Virus record (IMG/VR): IMGVR_UViG_3300020185_000005
Coordinates: 1 to 33,217 of that record
DNA: 33,217 bases
From: a virus
Strand: one strand, 5' to 3'
The translations under genes and the position numbers were made by a program. Each line of letters begins with the position of its first letter. The stretch's first letter is position 1. Shown here one piece after another: positions 1-21,402 of this stretch. The notes under the pieces are model-generated. The model did no database searches, was not told the DNA's origin, and was given only the letters and a program-made list of their open reading frames with translations.

Positions 1-127
1 TACAAGAGCAAATTCAGCTATTGATACAAGAGTTACTAAAGCATTTGTTGATGCACTAGGAATACAAGCATCAAGTGTAGATGCTAACTCAGTAACACTT
101 GGAACTGATACAGTGGGTAACTATGTT
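1..127. repeat. Exact 127-bp copy of the window end (33091..33217); circularisation overlap
   Basis: Base-by-base reading shows 1..127 is identical to 33091..33217. It lies inside an open reading frame that continues in phase across the junction. Confidence 0.95.
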
Positions 128-2470
128 GCAACAGTAACTGGTACTGCTAACAAGATTACAGTGTCAGGTAGTGGAAGTGAGTCTGCAAATATAACGCTAA
201 CACTACCTGATGACGTGCAAATTGCAGATAGCTTAACAGTAGCAGGTAATCTTACTGTTAATGGAACTCTAACGTCCCTAGACACAACCAATTTAGATAT
301 AGAAGATAACCTATTCCAGCTTAATGCAGGTCTTACAGGAAGTCCTGTTAATGATTCAGGTATGCTTATCAATAGAGGTAATTTAGACAATGGCATCTTT
401 ATGTGGGATGAATCTGTTGATAAATTCACAATGGGTCTTACTACAGCAGATGGTAGTGCTACAGGAAACATAACACTTAATTCACTTGGAACTTTAGTAG
501 TTAATGTTGAAGGTAACTTAACAGGTACTATTCAAACAGCAGCTCAACCTAATATTACAAGTGTTGGTACGCTTACAGGTTTAACAACTACAGGCGATAT
601 CAACTTTGGCGATAACGACAAAGCTATCTTTGGAGCTAGTTCAGATTTACAGATTTATCATGATGGTTCAGATAGCTATGTAAAGGATGCTGGTGCTGGA
701 TACTTAAATTTACTTGGGACGGGTAGGGTTGTAGTTGGGCATCCGTCTAATGGTGATGTATATCTAAACGCTAATTATGGTGGCGATGTTGAGCTTTTCT
801 TTAACAACAGCAAAAAGTTTGAAACAACCTCAACAGGCATAGACGTAACAGGTACAGCCACGATGGATGGTTTGACTGTTGATGGAACTGGTACAGAAGT
901 AATCTCAGTAAACTCAACAGCAAATGGTTCACAGATTGCTTTTGACAGTGCAACAACATCCTCTGATTGGCTTGTTGGTATTGCCAATGATGCAACCGAT
1001 GACTTTTTAATTTATCAAGGTGGTGCAGGCACTGGAGATATTAGACTATACACTGATGGAACAGAACGTTTAACAGTTTTACATGGTGGCAACGTTGGAA
1101 TTGGTAATACTAGTCCTGATACCTTGCTAAACATTGCTTCAGCATCCGCACCTACTATAAGAATAGAAAATACTGATATTTCTCTTGATGACGGACAGGT
1201 TATAGGAGCTGTAGAATTTTACAAAGCAGACGGCAGTGGTGCAGGTGCAGGTGTAGTTGGTGGAATGCAACTACTTTCGACCAATAGCACAGGTGCAGAA
1301 ACTAGCCTTACCTTTGGCACGTCTAGAGCTGCTGATGGTAACAATGTAGAAAGACTCCGAATTGATGCATCAGGAAACGTTGGTATTGGTACGAGTTCGC
1401 CAACTAATACTTTAGAAATTGCAAGTGATACTGACAATAGTGGGATTACAATATATAACGATTATGGTTCTGGTGGGCGTAATGCAAGAATTGGGTTCAA
1501 ATCATTAAATGGATATGATGCCTCTAGTGTTTTGGCTGCAGTTACAGCATCACCTGACAGTTCATCAAACACTGCTACTTCTTTAGTATTTTCTACATCA
1601 GGAAACAATAGTATTTCATCTGCTGGGCTTACAGAAAGAGTCCGCATAGACTCATCAGGCAACTTGTTGGTGGGACAAACTAATGCAAGTAGCGGAACTG
1701 TTGGAACAAGTCTTCGTGCTGATGGTAGAACTTTCTTTTGTGCTGATGGTAATTATGCTGCACATTTTAATAGAAATACATCTGACGGAGCAATAGCTCA
1801 CTTTGCAAAAGACGATTCAATAGTTGGAAGTATTGGTAGCCTCTCTGGTGTTGTTACTGAAATAGTTTTAGACCCTAGAACAAATGGTGCTTCACTTACT
1901 GGAGGAACAAATAAAATATCTCCAGGAAACCAAAGTGGTGCGCTTGACGCCCATTTAGACCTTGGAAGCATAAACAACCGCTTCAAAGACCTCTACCTTT
2001 CAGGCGGTGCTTATCTAGGCGGTACAGGTTCGGCAAACTATCTTGACGATTATGAAGAAGGTACTTTTACGCCTACATTAACAACTGATGGGACAGATTT
2101 TACAAGCGTTACTTATGATGCAAGAACAGGTGGTTCTTATACTAAAGTTGGTCGTTTAGTGCATTTTCAATTAACAGTAGTTACAGATGCAATTACAGTA
2201 GGTTCAGCTTCAGGTGGGGCTGTAATTGGTGGATTACCTTTTACACCCGCTACTGTATCAGGAGCAGGAACTGACCAATATACTGCTGTTTCTGTAACAT
2301 TTGGTTCAAATTGGAATGCTGCTAACAACCCTACTTCAGCTAGAGTGAATGAAACATCAGCATATATTAATTTGTATAGAGATGGCACAACAACAATAGC
2401 AGTTGCAGATGCACAAACTGGTGCTAATGATAACTATATTAATATTGCAGGAACTTATACAACAACATAA
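1..2470 (+). CDS. Tail fibre, 3' part (continuation of 31646..33217; whole gene ~1304 aa on the circular molecule)
   Basis: The frame is open from base 2 and is the same phase (mod 3 = 2) as the ORF running off the right end. The GTG at 113 in the ORF track is internal. The protein is G/S/T/N-rich with repeated E-R-L-R-I-D-x-S-G-N-V-G-I-G-T-x-S-P modules. Near the C-terminus it carries NRFKDLYLSGG and LDDYEEGTFTP, which I recall as typical of phage fibre receptor-binding ends. Confidence 0.85.
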   Translation, partial: TRANSAIDTRVTKAFVDALGIQASSVDANSVTLGTDTVGNYVATVTGTANKITVSGSGSESANITLTLPDDVQIADSLTVAGNLTVNGTLTSLDTTNLDIEDNLFQLNAGLTGSPVNDSGMLINRGNLDNGIFMWDESVDKFTMGLTTADGSATGNITLNSLGTLVVNVEGNLTGTIQTAAQPNITSVGTLTGLTTTGDINFGDNDKAIFGASSDLQIYHDGSDSYVKDAGAGYLNLLGTGRVVVGHPSNGDVYLNANYGGDVELFFNNSKKFETTSTGIDVTGTATMDGLTVDGTGTEVISVNSTANGSQIAFDSATTSSDWLVGIANDATDDFLIYQGGAGTGDIRLYTDGTERLTVLHGGNVGIGNTSPDTLLNIASASAPTIRIENTDISLDDGQVIGAVEFYKADGSGAGAGVVGGMQLLSTNSTGAETSLTFGTSRAADGNNVERLRIDASGNVGIGTSSPTNTLEIASDTDNSGITIYNDYGSGGRNARIGFKSLNGYDASSVLAAVTASPDSSSNTATSLVFSTSGNNSISSAGLTERVRIDSSGNLLVGQTNASSGTVGTSLRADGRTFFCADGNYAAHFNRNTSDGAIAHFAKDDSIVGSIGSLSGVVTEIVLDPRTNGASLTGGTNKISPGNQSGALDAHLDLGSINNRFKDLYLSGGAYLGGTGSANYLDDYEEGTFTPTLTTDGTDFTSVTYDARTGGSYTKVGRLVHFQLTVVTDAITVGSASGGAVIGGLPFTPATVSGAGTDQYTAVSVTFGSNWNAANNPTSARVNETSAYINLYRDGTTTIAVADAQTGANDNYINIAGTYTTT

Positions 2471-7702: not shown

Positions 7703-7713
7703 AGGAGTAATTT

Positions 7714-8334: not shown

Positions 8335-8336
8335 TC

Positions 8337-10172
8337 ATGAGAGAAGTCAACTTTGTAGAGTTGGCTCCTCGTGTAGGTCTTCATTTATTAGGAAAACCAA
8401 CAAAAGAATCTAGCACGGAATATAGATGGGGCACTAATGGAAGTTGGTGCCTTAATCTAGAAACTGGATTATTTTTTAGTTTTGAATTAGATGAAGGAGG
8501 AGGAGTTATATGGTTAATAGACCACTTTAATCAAAATAGAAATGATATATTAAATATGTACAGTCCAGATATTAATGACATACCAGTAACTAAAACATAT
8601 AAACAATATAATCAAGAACAAATGCGCTCGTTAGCACAAGAAGCTGTTGTTTTACTTAAATACACAGATTCTTTTGTAGTAATGAGGTTTGCAGATAATC
8701 ATTCAATCAAACAAAAGTATGCACCATTTTGTAAACAAGGCGATAATTGGTTTTTAAAACGCCCTGAAGGTTTAATGCCTATATACTATAAAGAAGCCGA
8801 TGGCCCTATAGTTATTAGTGAAGGTGAAAAAGCAACTTTAGGCGCAAATCAATTATACGATGGACCTACAGCAACTTGGCATGGAGGCGTTAATAGTTGG
8901 AAGAAAGCTGACTGGTCACCTGTATATGGTAAAGACATAATTATATGGCCAGACAATGATGAAGCCGGTTTTAAATGTGCAAATGAATTATCAGAGTATT
9001 TAACTGAAAATAAATGCTCTGTACAAATTGCTAAAGTGCCTGAAGCTTTAAATGATAAAGATGATTTATATGATGCATATTATAATAATATTTTTAGCAA
9101 AGAATCTTTTAAAGATTATTTGGATACTGCAGTTTCAAAGCCTAAAAGGCCCTCGCTTGTTTTACGTAAGATATCAGATCTTATTGCTAATATACAAGAG
9201 CCAGAATGGATCATAGAAGACATTATGGAAAAAGATTCAGTAATAGATATCTATGGTGCACCAAAAAGCGGTAAATCATTTGTAGCTATTGATATGGCTT
9301 TATGCTCATCAATGGGTATTCCATGGCAATCACATAAAACAGTTCAAACACCTATTATTTATTTAGCAGGTGAAGGTCAAAGAGGTATAGCAAGACGTGT
9401 ACAAGCATGGGAACATTATTATGGACATGACTTAAACAATGCACAAATGTTTGTATCAGATAGAGGTGTACGGTTTTTAGATGAAAAAGACCATCAAAAC
9501 CTTATTGATCATATAAAACAAGTAGCTGATGAATTTGGTGATATAGGCTGTTTATATGTAGATACGTTAGCTCGTAACTTTGGAGCTGGAAATGAAAATA
9601 GTACTGAAGATATGAATAAATTTATTGAACGAGTGGACCACTTAAAGTCTGAGTTCAGTTGTTGCATATCTTTGATACATCATACAGGGCATAGCAGTTC
9701 AGGACGAGCACGTGGCTCCTCTGTACTTCCTGCTGCTGTTGATGCTGAATTTGCGGTTAAACGGCCTAAAGATGAAGGTGAAGAAATGAAGGTTGAATTT
9801 ACTCAAACATTAATTAAAGACGGCAAGCCGATGAATCCTAAATACTTTAAGTTTAGAGAGATTGATTTAATTAATTATCCTGGTATGACTTCAGGTGTAT
9901 TAGTTAAAACTGAATATGATGAGTTTAAAGAAGAAGATTCTAAGATTGATGAAACTATTATTGCAATAGCAGAAATACAGGCAGAAAGAGCTATAGCTGA
10001 AAATGTTGATCCTATTGCTGTTTGGGTAACGCAAAAAGAAATAATAAATAAACAAACAGATTTGAAAGACAGTACTGTTAAACAACGTGTAAGAAGGTTG
10101 AAAGAAGCTGGTAAGATATATTATGAACAAGGTAAAGGCTATCAAGCTAAAAAGTATGACAATATTGATTAG
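8337..10172 (+). CDS. Bifunctional DNA primase-helicase (Toprim + RepA/AAA_25-like ATPase + C-terminal wHTH-like tail)
   Basis: The Toprim Glu is in VISEGEKA and the DxD is in IWPDNDEAG. Walker A is GAPKSGKS (9255..9278), Walker B is CLYVDTL, and the HHTGHSS sensor is present. The C-terminal ~50 aa (TVKQRVRRLKEAGKIYYEQGKGY) look like a winged helix. Confidence 0.85.
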   Translation: MREVNFVELAPRVGLHLLGKPTKESSTEYRWGTNGSWCLNLETGLFFSFELDEGGGVIWLIDHFNQNRNDILNMYSPDINDIPVTKTYKQYNQEQMRSLAQEAVVLLKYTDSFVVMRFADNHSIKQKYAPFCKQGDNWFLKRPEGLMPIYYKEADGPIVISEGEKATLGANQLYDGPTATWHGGVNSWKKADWSPVYGKDIIIWPDNDEAGFKCANELSEYLTENKCSVQIAKVPEALNDKDDLYDAYYNNIFSKESFKDYLDTAVSKPKRPSLVLRKISDLIANIQEPEWIIEDIMEKDSVIDIYGAPKSGKSFVAIDMALCSSMGIPWQSHKTVQTPIIYLAGEGQRGIARRVQAWEHYYGHDLNNAQMFVSDRGVRFLDEKDHQNLIDHIKQVADEFGDIGCLYVDTLARNFGAGNENSTEDMNKFIERVDHLKSEFSCCISLIHHTGHSSSGRARGSSVLPAAVDAEFAVKRPKDEGEEMKVEFTQTLIKDGKPMNPKYFKFREIDLINYPGMTSGVLVKTEYDEFKEEDSKIDETIIAIAEIQAERAIAENVDPIAVWVTQKEIINKQTDLKDSTVKQRVRRLKEAGKIYYEQGKGYQAKKYDNID

Positions 10173-10336
10173 TTACATAATTAGTTACATTAGTTACATT
10201 TTAGTTACATTTCTTGTCCAACTTAAAGAAAAAAAGAGTTACATTTTGAGTTACATACATATACCTATAGGTATATGTAACTCATGTAACTTTTTGATAA
10301 GTCGATTTTTAGTAAAAAGTAACTGTTGATGTAACT
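10171..10336. repeat. Iteron array / putative replication origin
   Basis: There are six direct AGTTACAT copies: 10171, 10183, 10192, 10203, 10237 and 10249. There are three inverted ATGTAACT copies (10275, 10284, 10329) plus a partial AGTAACT at 10318. A perfect 24-nt palindrome, TACATATACCTATAGGTATATGTA, lies at 10256..10279 between the two orientations. An A-rich tract is at 10226..10235. The array is immediately downstream of the primase-helicase. Confidence 0.7.
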
Positions 10337-10858
10337 ATGAATTATAAACAAAAGAAAATTAAAGAGTTAGAAGCATTAGAAAAAAATAAAGTTTTTAACG
10401 AATCATTACGAAAGCTTAACGCTATAAAAACAAAAATTAGTCTTGAATGGGGCAATGATCGTATTATGAATTTAATTAGCCCTGAATTACTATTACGATT
10501 TAAAAGAGCTGATACAAAATACTTTCATGAATATCATGCATCATTTAATAAAGTTAAGTTAAACGAAATGATGATTAGAGCGTATGAAGCATTGATACAA
10601 GATGCTACTAATCGTGGTTATAATACATTATCACCAGAATTTATATATACAAAGCATCCAGATACGAATGATAATATTATTATTTGTGTAAATGAAGACG
10701 ATGTACCAATAGCATTTGAAAAGTATAAATCCAAAGAAGATGTTATAATTTTTCATATTAATGAAATACTTATATCAATGACTGCAGATTTTATTGATAT
10801 AAAAAAGAAAACACACAAGATTGGAGGCAGAATAAAAAGTTATGTTAATGTCAGTTAA
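10337..10858 (+). CDS. Hypothetical protein (173 aa)
   Basis: This is a track ORF. The start codon abuts the last iteron. I recognise no motif. Confidence 0.6.
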   Translation: MNYKQKKIKELEALEKNKVFNESLRKLNAIKTKISLEWGNDRIMNLISPELLLRFKRADTKYFHEYHASFNKVKLNEMMIRAYEALIQDATNRGYNTLSPEFIYTKHPDTNDNIIICVNEDDVPIAFEKYKSKEDVIIFHINEILISMTADFIDIKKKTHKIGGRIKSYVNVS

Positions 10859-11957: not shown

Positions 11958-12470
11958 ATGGCTACAAGAAAAGAAGTTGCTGAACATTTATTCATGTCGG
12001 TTCAAAACGTTGGTAAATTAGTAGAAAAAGGCGTATTTAAGCCTAAACCAGGCCCTAATCCGCTAGATTTAGACCATTGCAGGCAATCATATATAGAAGA
12101 GCTACAACAAAAGGCTAGATATACGTTAAAAGATGGAACAGGAGATATAACAGAAGAAAAAACTAAACTAACTGCAGCGCAAGCTAAGAAAGCACAGTTA
12201 GATGTTGCTGTAATTGAAGGAAAGCTAATACCAACGGATCAAGTTGAATCTACATGGATTAACTATGCTTCAAACTGCAGAGGCAAACTTTTAACAATAC
12301 CAAACAAGGTTAGTCATTTAGTTTTAGCAAGTGATGATTTTAACGAAGTAGAAAAGATAATTAAAGATTCAATTTATGAGGCATTAGAGGAATTAGCAAA
12401 TGACCCAATACCAAGAGAATATAGAGAAAATACTCTTATCGACAAAGAAGACCTGGACACCACCGCCTAA
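11958..12470 (+). CDS. Terminase small subunit, lambda Nu1-like
   Basis: The N-terminal HTH TRKEVAEHLFMSVQNVGKLVEKGV is followed by a central LTAAQAKKAQLDVAVIEGKLIP segment, as in Nu1-family proteins. It lies directly upstream of, and overlaps, terL. Confidence 0.7.
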   Translation: MATRKEVAEHLFMSVQNVGKLVEKGVFKPKPGPNPLDLDHCRQSYIEELQQKARYTLKDGTGDITEEKTKLTAAQAKKAQLDVAVIEGKLIPTDQVESTWINYASNCRGKLLTIPNKVSHLVLASDDFNEVEKIIKDSIYEALEELANDPIPREYRENTLIDKEDLDTTA

Positions 12471-14226
12471 TCTAACTGTTTCAGAATGGGCTGATCAGTA
12501 CAGAACGCTATCACCAGAATCTTCTGCTGAAGCTGGCATGTGGAAAACATCGAGAGCTCCATATCAAAAAGGTATTATGGATGCCGTTAATGATCCAAAG
12601 ATTCATACTATTGTTTTTATGAAAAGTGCACAAGTTGGCGCAACTGAAATATTAAACAATATAGTTGCTTATTATATTGACCAGGACCCAAGCCCATGCT
12701 TAGTATTACAACCAACTTTACAAATGGCTCAAGCTTGGAGTAAAGACAGATTAGCTAATATGATTCGTGATTGTGATCGTTTACGAGCAAAAGTAAAAGA
12801 TCCAAGAAGTAAAGATAGTTCTAATACAGTTTTATCAAAACAATTTCCTGGAGGCAATATTAATATTGTTGGGTCTAATTCTGCTGCTGGTCTCGCTTCA
12901 AGACCAATTAGAATTTTGCTTTGTGATGAAATTGACCGTTATGATCCAAGTGCAGGTGCTGAAGGTGACCCTATTAACTTAGCAATTAAACGTACAACAA
13001 CATTTTGGAACAGAAAAATATTTATTACTTCTACCCCAACTATAAAAGGTTTATCAAGAATAGAAGTTGCTTTTGAAGAATCAGATCAACGTTATTACGA
13101 AGTGCCATGTCCAGAATGTAATAAGTATCAAGTTCTTGAATGGGAACAAATTCATTGGGAATCAAAAAAACCAGAAACAGCAGAATATACTTGTAAGCAT
13201 TGTGAAGTGGTAATACCTGAAACTAAAAAAATGTGGATGCTTTCACAAGGTAAATGGGTAGCTACGCAAGAAACAAAAAAAACAGCAGGCTTTCATATAT
13301 CAGAATTATATTCACCCTGGAGATCATGGAAAGATATGGCTGTTGATTTTTATGCTGTTAAGAGTCAACCTGAAATGTTAAAGACCTGGGTAAATACTGC
13401 ATTAGGCAAAACGTTTGATGATCCAGGAGAAAGTATTGAATATAGCTCATTGATGAATCAAAGAGAAGAATATGATTATACAAATATTCCTAATAATGTT
13501 TTATTAATTACAGCAGGGATTGATGTACAAGGCGATAGATTAGAAGCGCAAGTAATTGGCTGGGGCCAAAATAATGAAGCATGGGTTTTAGATTATCGAG
13601 TATTCTTTGGCGATCCATCAAGTAATTTGGTTTGGAAAGACTTAGACAATTATTTAGGCATGACATTTAAACGCGAAGATGAAAAAATTTTAAAAATAGC
13701 TTGTTCTTGTGTTGACTCAGGAGGTCATCATACACAACAGGTTTATGCTTTTACTTCTAAAAGAGTCCATAGAAAAGTATTTGCTATTAAAGGTCAGTCA
13801 CAAAGTAATAAGCCGGTTGCCGGTCGCCCGTCATATATTGGTAGATCACGACATATTTTATATCCAGTTGGGGCTGATACTGCTAAAGAAGCAATATATA
13901 CAAGATTAAAGTCTGAAACTAAAACAATACACTTCCCAGCAACAGTTGATGAAGAGTACTTTAGGCAGCTAACATCTGAAAAAAGAGTAATTAAATACTC
14001 TAAAGGCGCTAAGAAGTTTGAATGGGTTAAAAAAACTACAAGAAATGAAGCATTAGATACATTTGTTTATGGATTAGCTGCTTTATATATACTTCAGCCA
14101 AATTATAACCGCCTAGAGCAATTAATTAACAAAAATCAATCTACACAAGCAGAACATACAAAAAACGTTAAAAAAAGCTCATTTAGAGCTAATCATAGAC
14201 CAAATTGGGTAAATAATTGGAAATAA
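12400..14226 (+). CDS. Terminase large subunit, lambda gpA family
   Basis: The sequence VSEWADQYRTLSPESSAEAGMWKTSRAPYQKGIMDA and the Walker A-like FMKSAQVGATE and Walker B ILLCDEIDRY match the gpA family layout. The 608-aa size also fits. AGAGGA lies upstream of the ATG at 12400. Confidence 0.9.
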   Translation: MTQYQENIEKILLSTKKTWTPPPNLTVSEWADQYRTLSPESSAEAGMWKTSRAPYQKGIMDAVNDPKIHTIVFMKSAQVGATEILNNIVAYYIDQDPSPCLVLQPTLQMAQAWSKDRLANMIRDCDRLRAKVKDPRSKDSSNTVLSKQFPGGNINIVGSNSAAGLASRPIRILLCDEIDRYDPSAGAEGDPINLAIKRTTTFWNRKIFITSTPTIKGLSRIEVAFEESDQRYYEVPCPECNKYQVLEWEQIHWESKKPETAEYTCKHCEVVIPETKKMWMLSQGKWVATQETKKTAGFHISELYSPWRSWKDMAVDFYAVKSQPEMLKTWVNTALGKTFDDPGESIEYSSLMNQREEYDYTNIPNNVLLITAGIDVQGDRLEAQVIGWGQNNEAWVLDYRVFFGDPSSNLVWKDLDNYLGMTFKREDEKILKIACSCVDSGGHHTQQVYAFTSKRVHRKVFAIKGQSQSNKPVAGRPSYIGRSRHILYPVGADTAKEAIYTRLKSETKTIHFPATVDEEYFRQLTSEKRVIKYSKGAKKFEWVKKTTRNEALDTFVYGLAALYILQPNYNRLEQLINKNQSTQAEHTKNVKKSSFRANHRPNWVNNWK

Positions 14227-14305: not shown

Positions 14306-14560
14306 ATGAACCAAGAAGAAAGAAACGAATTACTAAAAAAAATTGAAAACATATCAGAATCTGTATGTCAAGTTATAAAAATGCTTGATAAGAATCTTGT
14401 TGAAGCACTTGATTATGGTACCGACGAAGAATCAACTATAATTTATCGCTTTCAAAAAGAACTTATAAATGACGCTGGTTTTTATGGCAAAGAAGCAAAC
14501 ATTGCAATTCAATATTTAACTGGCAGATTAACAGCTAACGACTTTACAAAAGCTGCTTAA
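14306..14560 (+). CDS. Hypothetical protein (84 aa), first gene of the nucleotide island
   Basis: This is a track ORF with a strong AAGGAG RBS. I recognise no motif. Confidence 0.6.
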   Translation: MNQEERNELLKKIENISESVCQVIKMLDKNLVEALDYGTDEESTIIYRFQKELINDAGFYGKEANIAIQYLTGRLTANDFTKAA

Positions 14561-14961
14561 TGCTAGGCGATATTAAAAAATTAAACCGGTATTATAAAAT
14601 ATACCGGTTTATTAACAAAGCAGATAATGAAGATAAAATGTCTTACTTACAATTTAGGGCTAATTTTATACAAGAAGAGTTAAACGAATTATTTACAGCA
14701 ATTGATAATCAAGAATCAGATGAAGTTGTTGATGCTTTCATTGATATTATTGTAATTGCATTAGGATCATTAGATGCATTTAATGTTGATATTAAAAAAG
14801 CGTGGAAACGTGTGCATCACGCTAATATGAAAAAAGAAATAGGAATTAAAGACAGCAGGCCAAATCCACTAGGGTTACCTGATCTTGTTAAACCAAAAGA
14901 TTGGCAAGCCCCGCAACATTTTGATAATGTTGGTAAATTAGATTTTTTAGATAAGGAGTAA
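14560..14961 (+). CDS. MazG-like all-alpha nucleoside triphosphate pyrophosphohydrolase
   Basis: The metal-binding motif EExxE...ExxD is seen as IQEELNEL ... DEVVDAFIDIIVIALG, followed by HHANMKK. The start is TAATG-coupled. Confidence 0.75.
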   Translation: MLGDIKKLNRYYKIYRFINKADNEDKMSYLQFRANFIQEELNELFTAIDNQESDEVVDAFIDIIVIALGSLDAFNVDIKKAWKRVHHANMKKEIGIKDSRPNPLGLPDLVKPKDWQAPQHFDNVGKLDFLDKE

Positions 14962-14963
14962 CT

Positions 14964-15227
14964 ATGCATTCAGTATTAAGCGAAGCAGCAGCTTTACAAA
15001 CACAAAAAGCCGAAGATTATAATTCAAATGATTCAGAGGCTAAACAAGAATACTTTCCGTACGGGCATCATTCGTATTTACAAATGATTTCAACAAAAGT
15101 AAAACGTTTAGAATCAATTGCATTCAATGAAAAAAATCCTAACTTTGAATCGGCTTACGATTCGGTATTAGATTTAATTAACTATGCAAGTTTTTATGGA
15201 GCTTATTTAAAAAAACATGGAAAATGA
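14964..15227 (+). CDS. Small helical protein, DUF1599-like pattern
   Basis: The pattern KAEDYNS ... STKVKRLESI ... ESAYDSVLDLINYASFYGAYL matches my recollection of DUF1599 (K..DY, K..R, DS..DliNYa.f). That family is often found next to phage nucleotide-metabolism genes. An HMM check is needed. Confidence 0.45.
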   Translation: MHSVLSEAAALQTQKAEDYNSNDSEAKQEYFPYGHHSYLQMISTKVKRLESIAFNEKNPNFESAYDSVLDLINYASFYGAYLKKHGK

Positions 15228-16011
15228 AAAACAATATTTTGCTTTAGTTAACAAAGTATTAACTGAAGGCATAAAAAGAAACCAAGAAAGAACAGGCGTA
15301 GGTACTTTAGGTATATTTGGGGCTAATCTTGAATTAAACTTAAAAGCTGGTTTTCCTTTATTTACACATCGTAAAATATTTTATAAAGGTGTAATTGGTG
15401 AGCTTATTGCTTTTTTACGCGGTCATACAAATGTAAATGACTTTAAAACACTGGGTTGTAATTACTGGGATGCTTGGGCCGAAGAAGATGGTAACTTAGG
15501 CCCTGTATATGGATCTCAATGGCGTAATTATTCTGGTTTACAAATTGATCAGTTAAAAAATGTTATCCAAGAAGCTAAGGTTAACCCAGAGTCAAGAAGA
15601 TTGTATGTAACTGCATGGAATCCAATTGATGCACATAAAATGGCATTACTACCTTGTTTTCACGGCTTTCAATTGTTTATTCATAATAATTATTTAAGTT
15701 TACTAGTCAATATGCGCTCATCTGATGTAATGGTAGGACTTCCCTCAGATATATTGTTCCACTCATTATTAATGTTAGTTTTGTCTAATGAATTAGATAT
15801 AACTCCTCATAAACTAATATTTAATTTAGGTGATGCGCATATCTATAATAATCATTTACAATTTGCAAAAACTGTACATGAATTACAAATATTTAATCCG
15901 CCACAAGTACGATTATATTACGAAGCAGGTATTGATAATTTATATCCTAATGATTTTATTATTTCAAGCTACAAACATAATGCAGCAAAACAATTAAAAG
16001 TTAATGTCTAA
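15217..16011 (+). CDS. Thymidylate-synthase-family (ThyA-fold) enzyme with Asp at the Asn177 specificity position; predicted dCMP methylase or hydroxymethylase
   Basis: The protein aligns by hand along its full length with E. coli ThyA. Conserved elements are RTGVGT, IGELIAFL (Glu58), YWDAW, SRR, catalytic Cys in LLPCF (C147, 15655..15657), MRSSD and GDAHIY. However, PFN(177) is replaced by PSD (D178, GAT at 15748..15750). Confidence 0.9.
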   Translation: MENEKQYFALVNKVLTEGIKRNQERTGVGTLGIFGANLELNLKAGFPLFTHRKIFYKGVIGELIAFLRGHTNVNDFKTLGCNYWDAWAEEDGNLGPVYGSQWRNYSGLQIDQLKNVIQEAKVNPESRRLYVTAWNPIDAHKMALLPCFHGFQLFIHNNYLSLLVNMRSSDVMVGLPSDILFHSLLMLVLSNELDITPHKLIFNLGDAHIYNNHLQFAKTVHELQIFNPPQVRLYYEAGIDNLYPNDFIISSYKHNAAKQLKVNV

Positions 16012-16468
16012 TTATTCTCATTCTTGGAATTTAAAATATTTAACACTTGCAAAAAAATTTGCTAGTTGGTCTAAAGATCCATCAGTTCAAGTAGGAGCAG
16101 TAGCTATTGGTAATAAAGGCCAAGTATTATCCCAAGGTTATAATGGCTTTCCTAGAGACTTTAATGATGCACAAACAATTTATAAAAACTCTGAACAAAA
16201 AAAGAATTATATTATTCATGCTGAAATGAATTGTATTTATCATGCAACTTTAAATGGTATTTCTTTAGAAAGAGCAACATTATTTGTTTATGGTTTAGAC
16301 ATATGTCATGAATGTGCTAAAGGTATAATTCAAGTTGGAATAAAAGAAGTAGTTACTTATTCTCCAGACAAGCCTAAAGAAAAATGGATTAGTAGTTTTA
16401 AAATATCACAAGAATTATTTAAACAAAGCGGAATAAATCATATAAAAATAGACCAAAATAAATTTTAA
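16004..16468 (+). CDS. dCMP deaminase (cytidine/deoxycytidylate deaminase fold)
   Basis: The zinc motifs HAEMN and C-H-E-C are present. The N-terminal KDPSVQVGAVAIGNKGQVLSQGYNGFP is typical of ComEB/dCMP deaminases. Confidence 0.85.
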   Translation: MSNYSHSWNLKYLTLAKKFASWSKDPSVQVGAVAIGNKGQVLSQGYNGFPRDFNDAQTIYKNSEQKKNYIIHAEMNCIYHATLNGISLERATLFVYGLDICHECAKGIIQVGIKEVVTYSPDKPKEKWISSFKISQELFKQSGINHIKIDQNKF

Positions 16469-16475
16469 GTATAAT

Positions 16476-16506
16476 GTAACAAATCTTTATAAATACTTGT
16501 TATAAT
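16476..16506 (+). promoter_or_regulatory. Candidate sigma70-type promoter with an extended -10 (TGTTATAAT)
   Basis: TATAAT lies at 16501..16506 with TG at 16498..16499. A weak -35-like TGTAACA lies about 17 nt upstream. The site is in the 62-nt gap before the gpW-like and portal genes. Confidence 0.35.
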
Positions 16507-16530
16507 CGGATATAGATATATTTTTAATTT

Positions 16531-17112
16531 ATGGCCAATAAATTCGACAGCACATATTACCCAACATCAGAGCCTAATGAATTACAGCTCGGTGATTTTT
16601 GGGCATGGAAAAAAACTGATCTCTCAGACGATTACCCTACTGCATCTTATAGTTTATCTTATGAATTTAATTTGGTTGATGGTTCAACAGCTGCTAATTT
16701 TACATTAACTGCTACAGAATCTAATGATGAATATATTATTGAAACAAGTAGCACAACATCATATACAGCTGGAGAATATAATTGGGTTTCTTATATTACT
16801 CGATCAAGCGACTCAGCAAGAATTAAATTATCAGAAGGCTTTACTGAAATACAACAAAATTATGCTACTACAACAAGTTCTGTAAGAAGCCATGTAAAAA
16901 AAGTTTTAGATGCAATAGAAGCAGTTATTGAAAATCGAGCAACTATGGACCAATCGTCTATGAGTATTGCTGGCAGATCATTATCAAGGCTAACTGTTGA
17001 TGAGTTAATGACATTTAGAGATCGATATAAAACAGAATATTTAAAAGAAGTTAAACAGGCTAGAATTAAAAATAAAAAAGATTCCGGTAATTTAATCAAA
17101 GTGAGGTTTTAA
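16531..17112 (+). CDS. Head-completion protein with a gpW-like C-terminal domain and an extra N-terminal domain
   Basis: The C-terminal ~70 aa (LDAIEAVIENRATMDQSSMSIAGRSLSRLTVDELMTFRDRYKTEY...GNLIKVRF) follow the lambda gpW pattern: A..al..G......v...Gr.v.....eL, ending hydrophobic-x-hydrophobic. The gene lies immediately before the portal, as W lies before B in lambda. Confidence 0.45.
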   Translation: MANKFDSTYYPTSEPNELQLGDFWAWKKTDLSDDYPTASYSLSYEFNLVDGSTAANFTLTATESNDEYIIETSSTTSYTAGEYNWVSYITRSSDSARIKLSEGFTEIQQNYATTTSSVRSHVKKVLDAIEAVIENRATMDQSSMSIAGRSLSRLTVDELMTFRDRYKTEYLKEVKQARIKNKKDSGNLIKVRF

Positions 17113-17114
17113 AT

Positions 17115-18626
17115 ATGGCCTGGTATGATCGATTCGTAAATAATAATAAAAAAACAAAAAAAGTTTCAAAAGTAAGAAGATATGCCGGTGCTAATACAGG
17201 CAGATTATTTGCAGATTTTACAGCATCAAGTACATCAGCAGACGCTGAAATTAAAGATCAATTAAGAATATTAAGAGAAAGAAGCCGTGATTTAGCTAGA
17301 AATGATTCATATGTAACTCGATACTTAAATTTAATGGTTAGCAATATTATTGGAGCTAACGGTATTAGATTAAGTGTTAAAGCACGTGATTCACAAGGTA
17401 ATTTAGATATTCTTGGCAACCAAACAATTGAGCGCGAGTTTAAGCAGTGGTCAAAAATGGGCAACTGTACATTGAATGGCCGTCAATCATTTTTAGATTG
17501 CCAAAAGTTATTTGTTGAAGCATTAATGAGAGATGGCGAAGTTTTAGTAAGGCATGCAACACCAACAGATTCAAAATATAAATATAAACTTCAATTTTTA
17601 GAAGCTGATCATTTAGATGAAACTAAAAATGATTTTAATCCTGAAACTAAAAATAGAATTAAAATGGGTGTAGAAGTTGATAAACATGACAAGCCCGTAG
17701 CATATTATTTATTTAAAAATCACCCATATGATAATACGTATCAATCACCTAAAGAGCATATAAGAGTACCAGCTGAAGAAATCATTCATGCATATATGCC
17801 AACACGTCCTGAGCAAACCAGGGGCGTACCTATGACTGCTTCAGCTATGCCTCAGATAAAAATGCTTAATGGTTATATGGAAGCTGAAATAACGGCCGCA
17901 CGTGTTTCAGCTGCAAAAATGGGATTCTTTACTTCGCCGGATGGTGATGGTTATGTTGGTGAAGATTTAGAAGATAGCTTTACTCCAATTATGGAAGCAT
18001 CTGCAGGCAGCTTTGAACAACTTCCCGCTGGAATGGATTTTAAAAGCTTTGACCCTGATCATCCAAGTACAGCATTTGGCCCATTTACAACACAAGTTTT
18101 AAGAGGTATTGCCTCTGGTTTAAATATTTCATATCATGCTTTAACAAATGATTTAAGTTCTGTTAATTATAGTTCTTTGCGAGCAGGTGCATTAGAAGAC
18201 AGAGAAATGTATAAGCTATATCAACGCTTTGTTGTAGATCATTTTATGAGGCCGGTATTCGAAAAGTGGTTAGAAATGTCTATATCAAGTGGCGCTATTA
18301 TTATGGATCCTGATGTAAATATTCCTTTACCGATGTCAAAATATGAAAAATTTGCTGCAGATACAATATTCATTGGACGTTCTTTCCAATGGGTTGATCC
18401 TCAAAAAGAAATGAATGCATCAATAAGTGGTATGCAAGCTGGCCTTGTTACTTATCAAGATGTACAATCAAATTATGGTAGAGACGTTGAAGAGCTATAT
18501 GAACAACACGAAAGAGAACAAAAGTTAGCTGAACAATATGGAATTAAAACAGCATTCCAGCCATTCGGTATAAAGCTTCCAATTGAACCTGTAATTAAAG
18601 GAGGCTCAGATGGCGATTCCGAATAA
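17115..18626 (+). CDS. Portal protein, lambda family
   Basis: The N-terminal RRYAGANTGRLFADFTASSTSADAEIKDQLRILRERSRDLARNDSYVTRYLNLMVSNIIGANGIRL is the hallmark of lambda gpB-type portals. The 503-aa size and the position after terL/gpW also fit. Confidence 0.9.
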   Translation: MAWYDRFVNNNKKTKKVSKVRRYAGANTGRLFADFTASSTSADAEIKDQLRILRERSRDLARNDSYVTRYLNLMVSNIIGANGIRLSVKARDSQGNLDILGNQTIEREFKQWSKMGNCTLNGRQSFLDCQKLFVEALMRDGEVLVRHATPTDSKYKYKLQFLEADHLDETKNDFNPETKNRIKMGVEVDKHDKPVAYYLFKNHPYDNTYQSPKEHIRVPAEEIIHAYMPTRPEQTRGVPMTASAMPQIKMLNGYMEAEITAARVSAAKMGFFTSPDGDGYVGEDLEDSFTPIMEASAGSFEQLPAGMDFKSFDPDHPSTAFGPFTTQVLRGIASGLNISYHALTNDLSSVNYSSLRAGALEDREMYKLYQRFVVDHFMRPVFEKWLEMSISSGAIIMDPDVNIPLPMSKYEKFAADTIFIGRSFQWVDPQKEMNASISGMQAGLVTYQDVQSNYGRDVEELYEQHEREQKLAEQYGIKTAFQPFGIKLPIEPVIKGGSDGDSE

Positions 18627-21402
18627 AGGCATGAAAGCAGAAGCTGAAAAAGGTTTAGCTTGGAGAAAAGAATTTGGAAGAGGAGGTACGCGTATTGGTG
18701 TAACTCGCGCTAATCAAATTAAAAACGGCGTTGATTTATCTGAGTCAACTATTAAAAGAATGTACAGTTATTTTTCAAGACATGAAGTTGATAAAAAAGC
18801 CGAAGGGTTTAGACCTGGCGAAGATGGATTTCCAAGTAATGGCAGGATTGCGTGGGCGCTTTGGGGAGGAGATCCAGGTTATACATGGTCAAAAAAATTA
18901 GTTGAGCAAATGAAAAAAGAAGATGAGCGTAAATTAGAAATGCGCCCATACCCTAATGAACATGCAGCTCGTATAGAAGACCCTGAACAATTTGATAACT
19001 TTAGAAGAAAAAATAATGAGTTTAAAACTGGCATACATGCTATACATGGTATAAAAGGCAATGAAAGATTAATACAAAGCATTAGATTTGATTCTGATAT
19101 GTTTACTCCAGACGAAGCAAAAGCTTGGTTAGAAAGAAATGAGTTTGAATATATTAAATTTGAAAATGCAATTGAAGAAAGAGCTGTTTCAGAAAAAACA
19201 GAAGAAGCATTAAAAAATAAATTAAAAGAACATCATGAAGAAGTAGGCGATACAAAAAGTAAACGAACAACGCTTGCTATTTTAAAACAAATTTATGAAC
19301 ACGGGATTGGAGCCTTTAATACAAATCCAGGCTCAGTTAGGCCTCAGGTTAGCAATGCTAATCAGTGGGCAATGGCTCGTGTAAACAGTTTTCTATTTGC
19401 TTTGCGCAATGGAAAATATAGAAGTGGGAAGCACGATACTGATCTGCTACCTAAATCACACCCTTTATCATCGAAAGAGGAAAAAGCTATGAAAGATAAA
19501 GAAGATAGACATATCCTCAACGTAAATGAAACAGATGATTCTGTAATCATTGAGTTTTCAAAGCACCATGAGGATAAAGCAGAAGAAGAAAATGTTGACG
19601 CAGTTTCTTCTTATCAAGAAGATGAAGACGAAAGAAAAGTTGTTGATTTACCATTAAGGTATAGAACAATTGATCTTTCTAAAAATTCATTCATTGATGA
19701 AGAAAAAAGATTAGTTCGTATTGGTGTTTCTTCGGAAGAACCAGTTGAGCGATCATTTGGTATGGAAGTTCTAAGCCATGCTGAAGATGATGTAGATATG
19801 GAATTTGTATCATCAGGTAGAGCTCCGTTTTTATTAGACCATGACATGTCTAAACAAATTGGAGTTATAGAAGAATTTAAACTTGACGAGGCGGCTAAGA
19901 GGACAATAGCTGTTGTTAGATTTGGTAGATCAGCACTAGCTCAAGAAGTTTTTCAAGATGTAGTTGACGGTATTCGTATGAATATAAGTGTTGGCTATAA
20001 AGTAAATAAACTTGCAAGAGTTAAAGATAACGATGAGATGCTTTATAAAGCGTCATGGACTCCACTTGAAGTATCAAGTGTATCTGTGCCGGCTGATCAA
20101 AGCAGACTAGTTGGAGTTGGACGCTCTGCAAAAATTAATAAGGATATTATTATGACTGAAGAAAAAAAAGATATTAATCTTGACGAAATCAGAAATAAAA
20201 CTCTTGAAGAAGCTAAAGCTGAATACAAAAGAAACTCGAAAGAGATTATTGATTTAGCTGTTAAGCATAACAAAAGAGATTTAGCTGATAGCGCAATTAA
20301 AGATGGTCTTACTGTTGAAGAATTCAGAGGCGCATTATTAAATGAAATATGCAATGATAAGCCGCTTGAAACTGCTGAAATTGGTATGACTCAAAATGAA
20401 GTGAGAGAATTCTCATTAGTAAAAGCAATTAATGCTTTAGCAAATCCAACTGATAGAAGAGCTCAAGAAGCTGCTGCTTTTGAATTTGAATGTTCAAATC
20501 AAGCTGCTAGAGAACAAGGAAAAACAGCTCAAGGAATTATGATTCCTGCTGATGTACTTGGCAACTGGAGCAAAAGAGATATTAACTCATCAGATGATTC
20601 ATCTTTAATCCCTCAAGATTATAGAGCTGGCGATTTTATTGATGTATTAAGAAACTCATCAAGTGTTATGCAAGCCGGCGCGACTATGCTTAGAGGACTC
20701 TCTGGCTCCGTCGTTATACCGAAGAAAACAGCTGCTTCATCAGCTGCTTGGATTGCAACTGAAGGTAATGCTGCTTCTGAAAGCGAATTTACTTCTGGTA
20801 GCGTTACTATGTCTCCTAAAGTAATTGGTGCGTTTACAGATGCAACTAGATTGCTTTTACAACAAAGCTCATTAGATGTTGAGAACTTAATCAGAGACGA
20901 CCTAACACAATCTATAGCTACTGCTATTGATTTAGGTGCTTTAGCTGGTTCTGGTTCTTCAGGACAGCCTACAGGTATTGCTAGTACTTCAGGTATTAAC
21001 ACTACTACTTTTGCTGCTGCAAGCCCAACATATGCTGAAATTATTGCTATGGAATCTGCAGTTGCTGCTGATAATGCATTAGTTGGAAACTTAGCATATA
21101 TATGTAAGCCATCTGATTATGGTACATTAAAAACAACTTCAAAAGATAGCGGAAGCGGCCAATTTGTTGTTGAGCCAGATGGAAACATGAATGGCTATAA
21201 TGTTATCAGATCAAATCAAGTAACTGCAGGAGATTTTTACTTTGGTAATTTCTCTGATTTACTTATTGGTATGTATGGCGGACTTGATATAACAGTGGAC
21301 CCATATGCTCTTAGCACATCAGGTGGAGTAAGAATTATTGCTCTTCAAACTTTAGATGTTGCTGTGCGTCATGCGGTATCTTTCTGTAAGTCAAGCGACT
21401 AA
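18610..21402 (+). CDS. Polyprotein: N-terminal accessory domains + HK97-family prohead protease + scaffold-like coiled coil + HK97-fold major capsid protein
   Basis: A GGAGG RBS is present. Residues ~345-500 (EEPVERSFGMEVL...APFLLDHDMSKQIGVIEEF...GIRMNISVGYKV) fit the S78/U35 prohead protease. Residues 515-~640 form a charged coiled coil. Residues ~640-930 (DYRAGDFIDVLRNSSSVMQAGATM...SESEFTSGSVTMSPKVIGAFTDATRLLLQQS...AIDLGALAGSG) fit the HK97 capsid family. Confidence 0.85.
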   Translation: MAIPNKGMKAEAEKGLAWRKEFGRGGTRIGVTRANQIKNGVDLSESTIKRMYSYFSRHEVDKKAEGFRPGEDGFPSNGRIAWALWGGDPGYTWSKKLVEQMKKEDERKLEMRPYPNEHAARIEDPEQFDNFRRKNNEFKTGIHAIHGIKGNERLIQSIRFDSDMFTPDEAKAWLERNEFEYIKFENAIEERAVSEKTEEALKNKLKEHHEEVGDTKSKRTTLAILKQIYEHGIGAFNTNPGSVRPQVSNANQWAMARVNSFLFALRNGKYRSGKHDTDLLPKSHPLSSKEEKAMKDKEDRHILNVNETDDSVIIEFSKHHEDKAEEENVDAVSSYQEDEDERKVVDLPLRYRTIDLSKNSFIDEEKRLVRIGVSSEEPVERSFGMEVLSHAEDDVDMEFVSSGRAPFLLDHDMSKQIGVIEEFKLDEAAKRTIAVVRFGRSALAQEVFQDVVDGIRMNISVGYKVNKLARVKDNDEMLYKASWTPLEVSSVSVPADQSRLVGVGRSAKINKDIIMTEEKKDINLDEIRNKTLEEAKAEYKRNSKEIIDLAVKHNKRDLADSAIKDGLTVEEFRGALLNEICNDKPLETAEIGMTQNEVREFSLVKAINALANPTDRRAQEAAAFEFECSNQAAREQGKTAQGIMIPADVLGNWSKRDINSSDDSSLIPQDYRAGDFIDVLRNSSSVMQAGATMLRGLSGSVVIPKKTAASSAAWIATEGNAASESEFTSGSVTMSPKVIGAFTDATRLLLQQSSLDVENLIRDDLTQSIATAIDLGALAGSGSSGQPTGIASTSGINTTTFAAASPTYAEIIAMESAVAADNALVGNLAYICKPSDYGTLKTTSKDSGSGQFVVEPDGNMNGYNVIRSNQVTAGDFYFGNFSDLLIGMYGGLDITVDPYALSTSGGVRIIALQTLDVAVRHAVSFCKSSD

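Follow-up and report, generated by a model that had tools for sequence, protein, structure and literature searches.

A predicted dCMP C5-methyltransferase of the thymidylate synthase family in an Xp12-like gene cassette of a small marine phage

Which pyrimidine does a thymidylate synthase (TS) homologue act on when the asparagine that normally selects dUMP is an aspartate, and what becomes of the product? The question is raised by a virus of seawater origin (IMG/VR record IMGVR_UViG_3300020185_000005), whose whole 33,217-nt stretch of DNA was analysed and is referred to here as the window; the genome is complete at ~33 kb, as judged from a 127-bp terminal overlap. An earlier note on this DNA had proposed a dCMP methylase or hydroxymethylase and, with it, a phage genome containing modified cytosine. 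Our reading, to which we give a probability of about 0.6 on the basis of active-site residues and gene neighbourhood, is that the gene encodes a folate-dependent dCMP C5-methyltransferase set in a small cassette, and that most or all of the cytosine in the virion would be 5-methylcytosine (5mC). The features on which the argument draws are collected in Table 1.

Table 1. Features of the cassette, its boundaries and the diagnostic codons of the TS homologue (positions in the window)
Feature	Position	Strand	Evidence
Large terminase (lambda gpA type), left cassette boundary	12400..14226	+	PF05876/PF20454 on syntenic homologue; 52% identity to Roseobacter phage CRP-821 TerL
84-aa ORF, no assigned function, first gene of packed block	14306..14560	+	Present in close relatives
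MazG-like all-alpha NTP pyrophosphohydrolase, 133 aa	14560..14961	+	PF01503, phrog_671, Xp12 hydrolase N-terminal half
DUF1599 / "nucleotide modification associated domain 1" protein, 87 aa	14964..15227	+	PF07659 (weak), phrog_18404, Xp12 hydrolase C-terminal half
TS-family protein, 264 aa, predicted dCMP C5-methyltransferase (5-methyl-dCMP synthase)	15217..16011	+	PF00303, ThyA match, AF2/Foldseek, active-site signature
Leu144 codon TTA, column of E. coli Leu143, kept	15646..15648	+	Alignment; Asp/Glu in hydroxymethylases
TGT-TTT: catalytic Cys147, then Phe148 (column of E. coli His147)	15655..15660	+	Alignments, codon read-out (Cys147, 15655..15657)
Asp170 codon GAT, column of E. coli Asp169, kept	15724..15726	+	Alignment; Asn in 5-hydroxy-dCMP synthases
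Asp178 codon GAT, column of E. coli ThyA Asn177 (pyrimidine specificity)	15748..15750	+	HMMER, MAFFT, codon read-out
dCMP/dCTP-deaminase-family zinc deaminase, 154 aa	16004..16468	+	PF00383, zinc motifs, PDB 7FH4, Xp12 deaminase
193-aa head-tail gene and portal (503 aa), right cassette boundary	16531..18626	+	PF05136 Phage_portal_2 on identical gene

The protein is a full-length, ThyA-fold member of the thymidylate synthase superfamily. Its reading frame opens with ATG and closes with TAA, the PF00303 profile matches it from end to end (E=3e-74, positions 1-265 of 266), and a phmmer search of the PDB aligns residues 5-216 collinearly with residues 3-216 of E. coli ThyA (E=1.7e-53), placing RSSDVMVGLPSDILFHSLL over RSCDVFLGLPFNIASYALL. 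An AF2 model has a pLDDT of 96.6, and in Foldseek all 264 of its residues superpose on ternary complexes of E. coli ThyA (TM 0.95, rmsd 1.4 Å). The hand-drawn collinearity with ThyA is therefore borne out, within the phmmer limits by alignment and over the whole length by profile and structure, and all of the motifs quoted for it (ERTGVGT, IGELIAFL, YWDAW, GPVYGSQW, SRR, LLPCF, MRSSD and GDAHIY) are in the translation. In E. coli numbering, Cys146, Glu58, Tyr94, Arg21/126/127/166, Asp169 and His207/Tyr209 are all present in the alignments, and the catalytic and ligand-binding residues of the fold are mostly invariant across the alignment of the clade described below.

Around the pyrimidine the picture changes. 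HMMER and MAFFT agree with the earlier note that, relative to E. coli ThyA, Asn177 is Asp, Phe176 is Ser (Ser177, codon TCA) and His147 is Phe, so that under rigorous alignment column 177 holds Asp178 and not the Asn required of a canonical TS; the active-site signature reads WWVYLCFMSDSDFH in the phage and WWVYLCHQCDFNSY in E. coli (MAFFT). In the O4 hydrogen-bond network, Phe148 and Met166 take the places of the canonical His147 and Gln165. Asn177 is the major determinant of dUMP specificity, TS gains dCMP methylase activity through N177D (Hardy & Nalivaika 1992; Liu & Santi 1992; literature cited in PMC8670742), and in the MetaGPA study (PMC8670742) no TS columns are more strongly associated with modification than 177 and 147. 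Asp at the pyrimidine-specificity column makes dCMP, not dUMP, the expected substrate, with Asp178, in the place of the uracil-reading Asn, predicted to recognise cytosine by its N3/N4 face.

Comparison with relatives indicates that this is not an isolated substitution. Among the best 120 database relatives, 98 are canonical ThyA with the motifs PCH/QRS.D/PFN, whereas all 19 of the closest relatives (43-93% identity) carry PCF/MRSSD/PSD..FH. In a neighbour-joining (NJ) tree these 19 and the phage TS form one monophyletic clade of 20 metagenomic proteins, across which Asp177, Phe147, Met165, Ser176 and His181 are fixed down to 43% identity; Asp178 is likewise invariant in the 18-sequence clade alignment (A2). 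The likeness of the specificity segment to T4 gp42 had been called striking, and the gp42 segment quoted for that comparison, NMRSNDVVFGFRND, is correct (T4 NC_000866, gene 42), but the resemblance is superficial, the phage protein being 26% identical to gp42, 30% to the TS homologue of phage Xp12 and 40-46% to ordinary ThyA. The tree groups the clade with ThyA-like sequences and puts Xp12 TS on a separate branch; since the phage TS is nearer to ordinary ThyA than to Xp12 TS, the Asp at column 177 may have arisen independently of the latter. Megablast found no near-identical DNA among cultured phages, and the best cultured relatives, the Roseobacter CRP phages, share only TerL (~52%) and are without the cassette. 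In a host and prophage search of 185k species genomes, the matches listed were all canonical ThyA, none above 46% identity. The presence of 88-aa and 112-aa "members" in the TS clusters suggested that the TS gene might be split or contain an intron, an idea that was rejected: they prove to be the neighbouring DUF1599 protein together with an unrelated one, and so a clustering artefact.

An ordinary thymidylate synthase that converts dUMP to dTMP despite a tolerated Asp, with the adjacent deaminase supplying dUMP, would fit the labels. The protein passes the TIGR03284 thymidylate synthase cut-off (209.6 vs 108.35 bits), its close homologues are called "thymidylate synthase" where their sources name them, and dCMP deaminase with ThyA is a classic pair. 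It fails, however, the stricter NCBIfam ThyA equivalog cut-offs (246 vs 327 bits); it has lost the chief dUMP determinant, and Asp at that column shifts specificity to dCMP; His147Phe, Gln165Met, Phe176Ser and Tyr181His co-vary with the Asp when the clade is set against canonical ThyA; and both deaminase linkage and modified DNA go with the Asp and not the Asn state. We regard ordinary TS activity as very improbable.

If dCMP is the substrate, the next matter is what is placed on C5. Hydroxymethylases are marked by Asp/Glu at column 143, Ser at column 93 and loss of the C-terminal tail (PMC6400193; PMC13326640), the acidic residue at 143, three residues before the catalytic Cys, serving as water activator (PMC6400193), while D169N is a mark of 5-hydroxy-dCMP synthases (PMC13326640). 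The phage enzyme keeps Leu143, Val93, Trp80/Trp83, Tyr94, Asp169 and the full tail of ThyA (MAFFT), the tail "...KQLKVNV" aligning to the E. coli C-terminus. The marks of the T4 gp42 type are therefore absent (Leu144 at column 143, Val97 in place of a Ser/Thr two before the catalytic Tyr, Trp87 kept at column 83 where the gp42 type has another residue, tail complete), as are those of the RB69 gp48 / DLP3 gp80 type (Asp170 and Leu144 in place of Asn169 and Glu143). By rules derived from few characterised enzymes, these discriminating residues point to a methylase rather than to a T4-type hydroxymethylase or a 5-hydroxy-dCMP synthase. The water-excluding, hydride-transfer architecture of ThyA appears to be kept, so a DHF-releasing methylation would be expected, namely dCMP + CH2-THF -> 5-methyl-dCMP + DHF. 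Of the earlier proposal of a dCMP methylase or hydroxymethylase, then, the dCMP substrate stands on the Asp column and the product that it left open is narrowed to the methylase.

A gp42-like hydroxymethylase yielding 5-hydroxymethylcytosine DNA nevertheless has points in its favour: Asp177 and Met165 are common to gp42, both proteins reading NMRS.D; no DHFR accompanies the cassette, and a THF-releasing enzyme needs none where a DHF-releasing methylase would; and two of seven tested enzymes from such cassettes gave no 5-methyl-dC (5mdC; bioRxiv 10.1101/2024.12.05.627091). We judge it improbable in view of the residues just described, the closer identity to ThyA than to gp42, and a cassette that matches that of the 5mC phage Xp12. 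In addition, searches of the complete genome with Pfam and PHROGs turned up no glycosyltransferase, carbamoyltransferase or other transferase for which a hydroxymethyl group could serve as handle. Some other C5 product, such as a novel group, or 5-hydroxy-dCMP made through flavin chemistry, comes to mind because recent work on the 5hodCMP synthases of RB69 and DLP3 (PMC13326640) has revealed unexpected chemistry in the TS fold and because Phe147 and His181 are unusual. All tested 5hodCMP synthases, however, have Asn169 and Glu143, the phage has Asp170 and Leu144, and searches of the complete genome (Pfam, PHROGs) found no sugar-nucleotide or glycosyltransferase genes; we consider such a product extremely unlikely.

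The gene neighbourhood provides a second line of evidence. The TS gene is the fourth of five ORFs in a packed block of ~2.2 kb that is inserted between the terminase and portal genes, at a point where, in the map of the cultured relative CRP-821, the head-tail gene and portal directly follow TerL. The first, 84-aa ORF has no family match in Pfam or PHROGs, and its stop overlaps the start of the MazG-like gene; in the P0009 lineage a 50-aa ORF stands in its place. The MazG-like protein matches PF01503 PRA-PH (E=4e-11), phrog_671 nucleotide pyrophosphohydrolase (E=6e-22) and the N-terminal half of the Xp12 "hydrolase" (37% identity, E=7e-11), and it has the acidic motifs ELNE and EVVD. Its only matches among PDB sequences are weak ones to DR2231 (E=0.03), from which substrate specificity cannot be read; it would act as a pyrophosphatase on dCTP (or on dNTPs), supplying dCMP while draining dCTP. 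The DUF1599 gene overlaps the TS start by 11 nt, and its product matches phrog_18404 (E=4e-16), the C-terminal half of the Xp12 "hydrolase" (38% identity, E=3e-19) and, weakly and below the curated cutoff, PF07659 (E=0.005); a literature search on DUF1599 found no functional study. The deaminase gene begins 8 nt before the end of the TS gene. Its product matches PF00383 (E=4e-18) with intact HAE and CHEC zinc/catalytic motifs, is 28% identical to the Xp12 deaminase (E=1e-18), and has as its best PDB match 7FH4, the bifunctional dCMP/dCTP deaminase of PBCV-1 (E=6e-25); the 5mC-selective deaminase mSCD-B5 has its nearest structure in 7FH4 as well (bioRxiv 10.1101/2024.12.05.627091). Preference for 5-methyl-dC is sporadic within the family (same preprint) and so is not readable from the sequence; by analogy, this protein may be a 5-methyl-dC nucleotide deaminase that supplies dT nucleotides. 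Promoter and terminator scans of the cassette gave sites no more numerous than in shuffled sequence.

The same genes travel together elsewhere. A lineage with a TS of 58% identity has the cassette in synteny, and an unrelated T7-like contig likewise brings together TS(Asp), a deaminase and PRA-PH. Across 80 IMG/VR TS loci, a deaminase lies within 4 kb of 11/19 Asp177 loci but of only 3/61 Asn177 loci. The pairing of TS with a deaminase was tied to cytosine-modified viral DNA by MetaGPA (eLife 2021, PMC8670742), and a later preprint reported that TS(Asp177) co-localises with PRA-PH and a PF00383 deaminase on viral contigs with modified cytosine (104/149 vs 17/277), that five of seven tested deaminase-linked TS enzymes, together with Xp12 TS, made 5mdC in E. 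coli, and that mSCD-B5 converts 5mdCTP to dTTP (bioRxiv 10.1101/2024.12.05.627091). Enzyme class and cassette have therefore already been described (Xp12 since 1976, MetaGPA in 2021, the 5mC-selective deaminase preprint in 2024); the concept is established and no new question is opened, and the novelty implied by the earlier note was overstated.

These data also bear on a further possibility, that the cassette is a dUMP-independent thymidylate route running from dCTP through dCMP and 5-methyl-dCMP (or the triphosphate) to dTMP/dTTP via the deaminase, so that dT is supplied to a genome of 67% A+T and little or no 5mC reaches the virion. The 8-nt overlap couples the deaminase translationally to the TS gene, the preprint itself proposes that in-cis deaminases make dT from 5-methyl-dC nucleotides and so bypass a second TS (bioRxiv 10.1101/2024.12.05.627091), and the phage encodes no recognisable dNMP kinase or polymerase for a modified pool. 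We think it unlikely nonetheless. An ordinary ThyA with a dCMP deaminase, common in phages, would give the same result and leave the fixation of Asp unexplained; TS(Asp)-deaminase contigs are enriched specifically in fractions selected for modified cytosine (PMC8670742; bioRxiv 10.1101/2024.12.05.627091); Xp12, with the same cassette, has DNA in which cytosine is 100% 5mC (PMC7653180); and the substrate of mSCD-B5 is a triphosphate (bioRxiv 10.1101/2024.12.05.627091), which implies that 5mdCTP accumulates and can be used by a polymerase.

An Xp12-like cassette combined with an active site set for dCMP makes it probable that the phage methylates its own cytosines, and the methylase reading can be laid out as a pathway. 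The MazG-like pyrophosphatase with its DUF1599 partner would convert dCTP to dCMP, removing the canonical precursor and supplying substrate; the TS homologue would methylate dCMP, as its residues and the tested homologues suggest; host kinases would raise 5mdCMP to 5mdCTP for incorporation by the host replicase; and the deaminase, by analogy with Xp12 and mSCD-B5, would turn part of the 5-methyl-dC nucleotide pool into dT nucleotides. The outcome would be a virion in which most or all cytosine is 5mC, protected from many restriction enzymes. The reliance on the host reflects gene content. Pfam, PHROGs and a Walker-A scan of the complete genome found no dNMP kinase, DHFR, DNA polymerase or DNA methyltransferase, the primase-helicase having the only P-loop, although DHFR and a phage 5mdCMP kinase are accessory and not strictly defining features of an Xp12-type 5mdCMP synthase. 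Base statistics are uninformative on modification, with only GATC (0.63) and CATG (0.68) low among restriction sites and a CpG O/E of 0.51, a value common in A+T-rich genomes. Of the cytosine-modified genome that had been predicted, the modification pathway thus finds support in gene context and published work, while a 5mC virion genome was overstated for a phage with no recognisable dNMP kinase or polymerase; 5mC in virion DNA would follow if the host steps operate as outlined. The anti-CRISPR trait that had been suggested receives no support from this analysis. 5mC alone is not known to block Cas9.

A stronger version, that these ~2.2 kb are a minimal, portable, moron-like 5mC-substitution cassette sufficient for global cytosine replacement in a 33-kb siphovirus with only host kinases, DHFR and replicase, we regard as a doubtful extension; in that case an activity otherwise lacking, such as specificity or a kinase-like step, might come from the DUF1599 partner. 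Were it true, no smaller or simpler way of substituting a base throughout a phage genome would be known; the cultured relatives of the lineage rely instead on sequence-specific DNA C5-methyltransferases. If the methylase reading itself is confirmed, the phages that use 5mC for cytosine would gain a marine siphovirus lineage that is abundant, with occurrences in Tara, JGI and ENA assemblies, and an Xp12-type cassette would be seen to be workable in a very small genome lacking its own polymerase, kinase and DHFR. There are practical consequences as well: genes of this type are routinely given the wrong name, thymidylate synthase, and the code 177 Asp, 143 Leu, 169 Asp improves automatic calls; 5mC genomes behave differently in viromics based on restriction and on bisulfite or enzymatic conversion; and the deaminase may prove to be 5mC-selective, like enzymes whose value in biotechnology is proven.

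Among known systems, E. coli ThyA shares the fold over its full extent and the conserved catalytic, phosphate-binding and folate-binding residues, and the E. coli N177D and L. casei N229D mutants establish that a single Asn-to-Asp change suffices for dCMP methylase activity; the phage enzyme differs in its fixed His147Phe, Gln165Met, Cys168Ser, Phe176Ser, Ser180Phe and Tyr181His near the pyrimidine. T4 gp42 (PDB 1B5E family), whose ternary complex has been described (PMC6400193) and whose substrate is dCMP, shares the Asp at the specificity column, Met165 and the catalytic Cys/Glu/Tyr, but has Asp145, the water activator, where the phage has Leu144, Val85 where it has Trp87, and no C-terminal tail; opposite Val97 our alignment places an Asn of gp42, where PMC6400193 gives Ser94. 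The MetaGPA and mSCD-B5 modules, from marine and sewage metaviromes, are likened to the phage cassette by domain content and residue code, the activity of the phage pair being predicted: they share the Pfam trio PF00303 (Asp177, altered 147), PF00383/PF14437 and PF01503 within 3 kb, a seawater origin, and 7FH4 as nearest solved deaminase structure.

The closest parallel in gene order is Xp12 (MT664984) with its relatives AXL1 and PaMx74 (Pamexvirus/Bosavirus). Wang, Huang and Ehrlich reportedly found in 1982 that Xp12 induces its own 5mdCMP kinase. Its cassette comprises a hydrolase (QNN97215), a TS (QNN97214) verified experimentally to make 5mdC (bioRxiv 10.1101/2024.12.05.627091), a dCMP deaminase (QNN97213) and a DHFR (QNN97212). 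In Xp12, MazG and DUF1599 are fused where the marine phage has separate ORFs, each part is only 28-38% identical, the TS has Asn at column 143 in place of Leu, and the cassette lies in the replication and not the packaging/head module; the Xp12 genome is 64 kb with ~67% G+C, against 33 kb and 33% G+C, and encodes DHFR and PolA, whereas the marine phage is without DHFR, PolA and the helicase module. What the two phages share is the order MazG-DUF1599 -> TS(Asp) -> deaminase, each of the four parts being significantly similar to its Xp12 counterpart, and, within TS, Asp at 177, a non-His 147, a non-Gln 165, RSSD, His181, a non-acidic 143 and the C-terminal tail.

The open reading frame described in an earlier note as a ThyA-family protein is real: the Pfam domain Thymidylat_synt covers its whole length (E=3e-74; positions 1-265 of the 266 in the profile), phmmer aligns it collinearly with E. 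coli ThyA (E=1.7e-53), and its very confident AlphaFold2 model (pLDDT 96.6) superposes over all 264 residues on E. coli ThyA ternary complexes (TM 0.95, rmsd 1.4 A). HMMER places E. coli RSCDVFLGLPFNIASYALL opposite RSSDVMVGLPSDILFHSLL and 'APCHAFFQ' opposite 'LPCFHGFQ', which confirms the three substitutions noted previously (Asn177 to Asp178, Phe176 to Ser177 and His147 to Phe148); the codon positions (TGT 15655..15657, GAT 15748..15750) and the quoted T4 gp42 segment, NMRSNDVVFGFRND, were also correct.

Several columns, in E. coli ThyA numbering, govern substrate and product. Asn at 177 specifies dUMP and Asp dCMP, and N177D or N229D turns thymidylate synthase (TS) into a dCMP methylase (work cited in PMC8670742). 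At 143, Leu keeps water out, giving methyl, while Asp or Glu activates water, giving hydroxymethyl; in T4 dCMP hydroxymethylase (gp42) the acidic residue is accompanied by Ser at 93 and by loss of Trp83 and of the C-terminal tail (PMC6400193; PMC13326640). Column 169 is Asp in folate enzymes and Asn in flavin-dependent 5-hydroxy-dCMP synthases (PMC13326640). The TS homologue has Asp178, Leu144, Val97, Trp84/Trp87 and Asp170, with a complete tail that aligns with the C-terminus of the E. coli enzyme, a combination that predicts 5-methyl-dCMP with DHF release. The earlier proposal of a dCMP methylase or hydroxymethylase with modified cytosine was thus essentially right, and the residue rules sharpen it to a methylase and 5mC. 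The hydroxymethylase half of that proposal is unlikely: in the same alignment, T4 gp42 has Asp at 143, Val at 83 and no tail. The TS of Xanthomonas phage Xp12, with Asp at 177 and the tail present, carries Asn at 143, so the rule is best worded as "not acidic at 143". An ordinary TS is very improbable with Asp at column 177, and another C5 chemistry at this site, with its folate-type Asp170, is more improbable still; a dCMP methylase is the likely identity.

Judged by its relatives, the Asp signature is not a chance variant. Among the best 120 matches from 5.8 billion proteins, the PCF, MRSSD, GLPSD and FH signature is present in all 19 closest relatives (93% down to 43% identity), and once identity drops to about 45% or less, the matches are ordinary ThyA, which reads PCH, QRS.D, PFN and SY. 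In a neighbour-joining tree, 20 signature-bearing sequences form one clade, in whose alignment Asp178, Phe148, Met166 and His182 are invariant; its proteins all come from metagenomes, Tara included, and no member in a cellular genome was found among the matches listed. The 90%-identity clusters of the TS (P0001, P0003) also contain DUF1599 proteins of 88 aa and one unrelated protein of 112 aa; split TS genes, considered because of these short members, were rejected as a clustering artefact, probably from overlapping gene calls. Viral TS of another kind combines Asp at 177 and Tyr at 176 with a retained His147 and often Gln165 (LCHQDYDY in L027, L036 and L055; LCHMDYDY in L032, L041 and L063; also L045, L049 and L071), and most of these loci are without a deaminase within 4 kb.

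The TS homologue belongs to a compact block of five ORFs, closely spaced or overlapping, that separates TerL from the head-tail and portal genes.

Cassette ORFs of the window
Feature	Coordinates	Strand	Remark
ORF of 84 aa	14306..14560	+	no assigned function
MazG-like/PRA-PH NTP pyrophosphohydrolase	14560..14961	+	
DUF1599 protein	14964..15227	+	
TS homologue	15217..16011	+	ATG to TAA, 264 aa
dCMP-deaminase-family protein	16004..16468	+	intact HAE/CHEC site

In TerL the window shares 52% identity with small Roseobacter siphoviruses, among them CRP-821 (PV211011), its closest cultured relative, in which the head-tail gene directly follows TerL; the five-ORF block is therefore an insertion. Instead of the cassette, CRP-821 has two DNA cytosine-C5 methyltransferase genes, and its gene content also includes a PAPS-reductase-family gene and a dATP/dGTP diphosphohydrolase (noted loci 1102-1419, 1907-2710, 7224-8983, 27398-29635), so related phages seem to use another route to cytosine methylation, and perhaps to further modifications.

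Bases 1-127 of the window are identical to 33091-33217, a circular-assembly overlap typical of k=127, so that at about 33,090 bp the contig represents a whole genome, circular or circularly permuted. G+C content is about 33%, and every gene lies on the same strand; those encoded include a lambda-type terminase, portal and capsid, a primase-helicase, RecE-like exonuclease and resolvase, and holin and lysozyme. A 930-aa ORF (18610-21402), with a long N-terminal region (faint DUF5824) and a Phage_capsid (PF05065) domain, resembles a scaffold/protease gene fused to a capsid gene, comparable to the 974-aa 'major capsid protein' of CRP-821. A long tail-fibre-like ORF beginning MAQHDYNIANQSGADF (about 31650-33217) is cut by the 3' end and evidently resumes beyond the junction as the 785-aa ORF at 113..2470, whose true start was thus missed by ORF calling. 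CpG is strongly under-represented (O/E 0.51; TpG 1.15, CpA 1.20), and of the 4-mer palindromes only GATC (0.63) and CATG (0.68) show clear depletion; this bias may stem from deamination of 5mC, from mimicry of the host or from restriction avoidance.

In Xp12 (MT664984), whose DNA has cytosine fully replaced by 5mC (PMC7653180), a 'hydrolase', TS, dCMP deaminase and DHFR follow one another on one strand. The first (16208-16981), annotated as HAD superfamily, matches both the window MazG-like ORF (37% identity, E=7e-11) and the DUF1599 ORF (38%, E=3e-19) and is thus a fusion of the two, not HAD; the TS (30%, E=5e-31) and deaminase (28%, E=1e-18) match their window counterparts. In gene order and in the similarity of each part, the window cassette corresponds to that of Xp12. 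Its gene order recurs in a lineage with a 58%-identical TS (L005-L008), and an unrelated T7-like contig, L001, carries TS(Asp), deaminase and PRA-PH protein together. This marine contig (RNA polymerase, integrase, PolA, RNR and a dGTP_diPhyd_N protein) has a TS with the window's LCFMDSDH signature, with the deaminase 4 kb upstream and the PRA-PH protein 8 kb downstream, dispersed rather than in a cassette (noted loci 5839-6276, 10001-10804, 18009-18377, 18943-19335). Across 80 IMG/VR loci with TS homologues, a deaminase lies within 4 kb at 11 of 19 Asp177 loci versus 3 of 61 Asn177 loci; as nine of these 11 loci are closely related to the window, they represent about three independent lineages.

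Residue identity and conservation, fold and cassette synteny are direct observations. In the proposed mechanism, the MazG-like protein, with or without DUF1599, would convert dCTP to dCMP, the TS homologue would methylate it using CH2-THF, host Cmk and Ndk would phosphorylate 5mdCMP, and the host replicase would incorporate 5mdCTP; the deaminase would turn part of the methylated pool into dT nucleotides, and host DHFR would recycle DHF. A weak link is that a search of the complete window genome found no dNMP kinase, polymerase or DHFR of the phage's own. A dUMP-free thymidylate route, leaving little 5mC in DNA, could use the same deaminase and is unlikely beside the full substitution in Xp12. 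We put the whole statement, a dCMP methylase plus predicted 5mC-substituted virion DNA, at a probability of about 0.6. Since Xp12 DNA resists cleavage at most C-containing type II sites (PMC7653180), an anti-restriction role for the predicted 5mC is a reasonable analogy; the anti-CRISPR trait suggested earlier is unsupported.

There is published precedent. In MetaGPA, TS ranked first among Pfam domains for association with cytosine-modified viral DNA, its two most discriminating columns were 177 and 147, and PRA-PH and dCMP-deaminase domains co-occurred with it specifically on modified contigs (PMC8670742). In a coastal seawater metavirome, a TS gene lay within 3 kb of 104/149 deaminase genes from modified contigs versus 17/277 from unmodified ones, and 5/7 deaminase-linked TS enzymes, as well as Xp12 TS, made 5mdC in E. 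coli co-expressing T4 dNMP kinase (bioRxiv 10.1101/2024.12.05.627091). The structure nearest to mSCD-B5, the 5mC-selective deaminase of that study, which converts 5mdCTP to dTTP, is 7FH4, also the best PDB match of the window deaminase (E=6e-25). The TS homologue is a new addition to this already described enzyme class rather than a discovery of a new kind.
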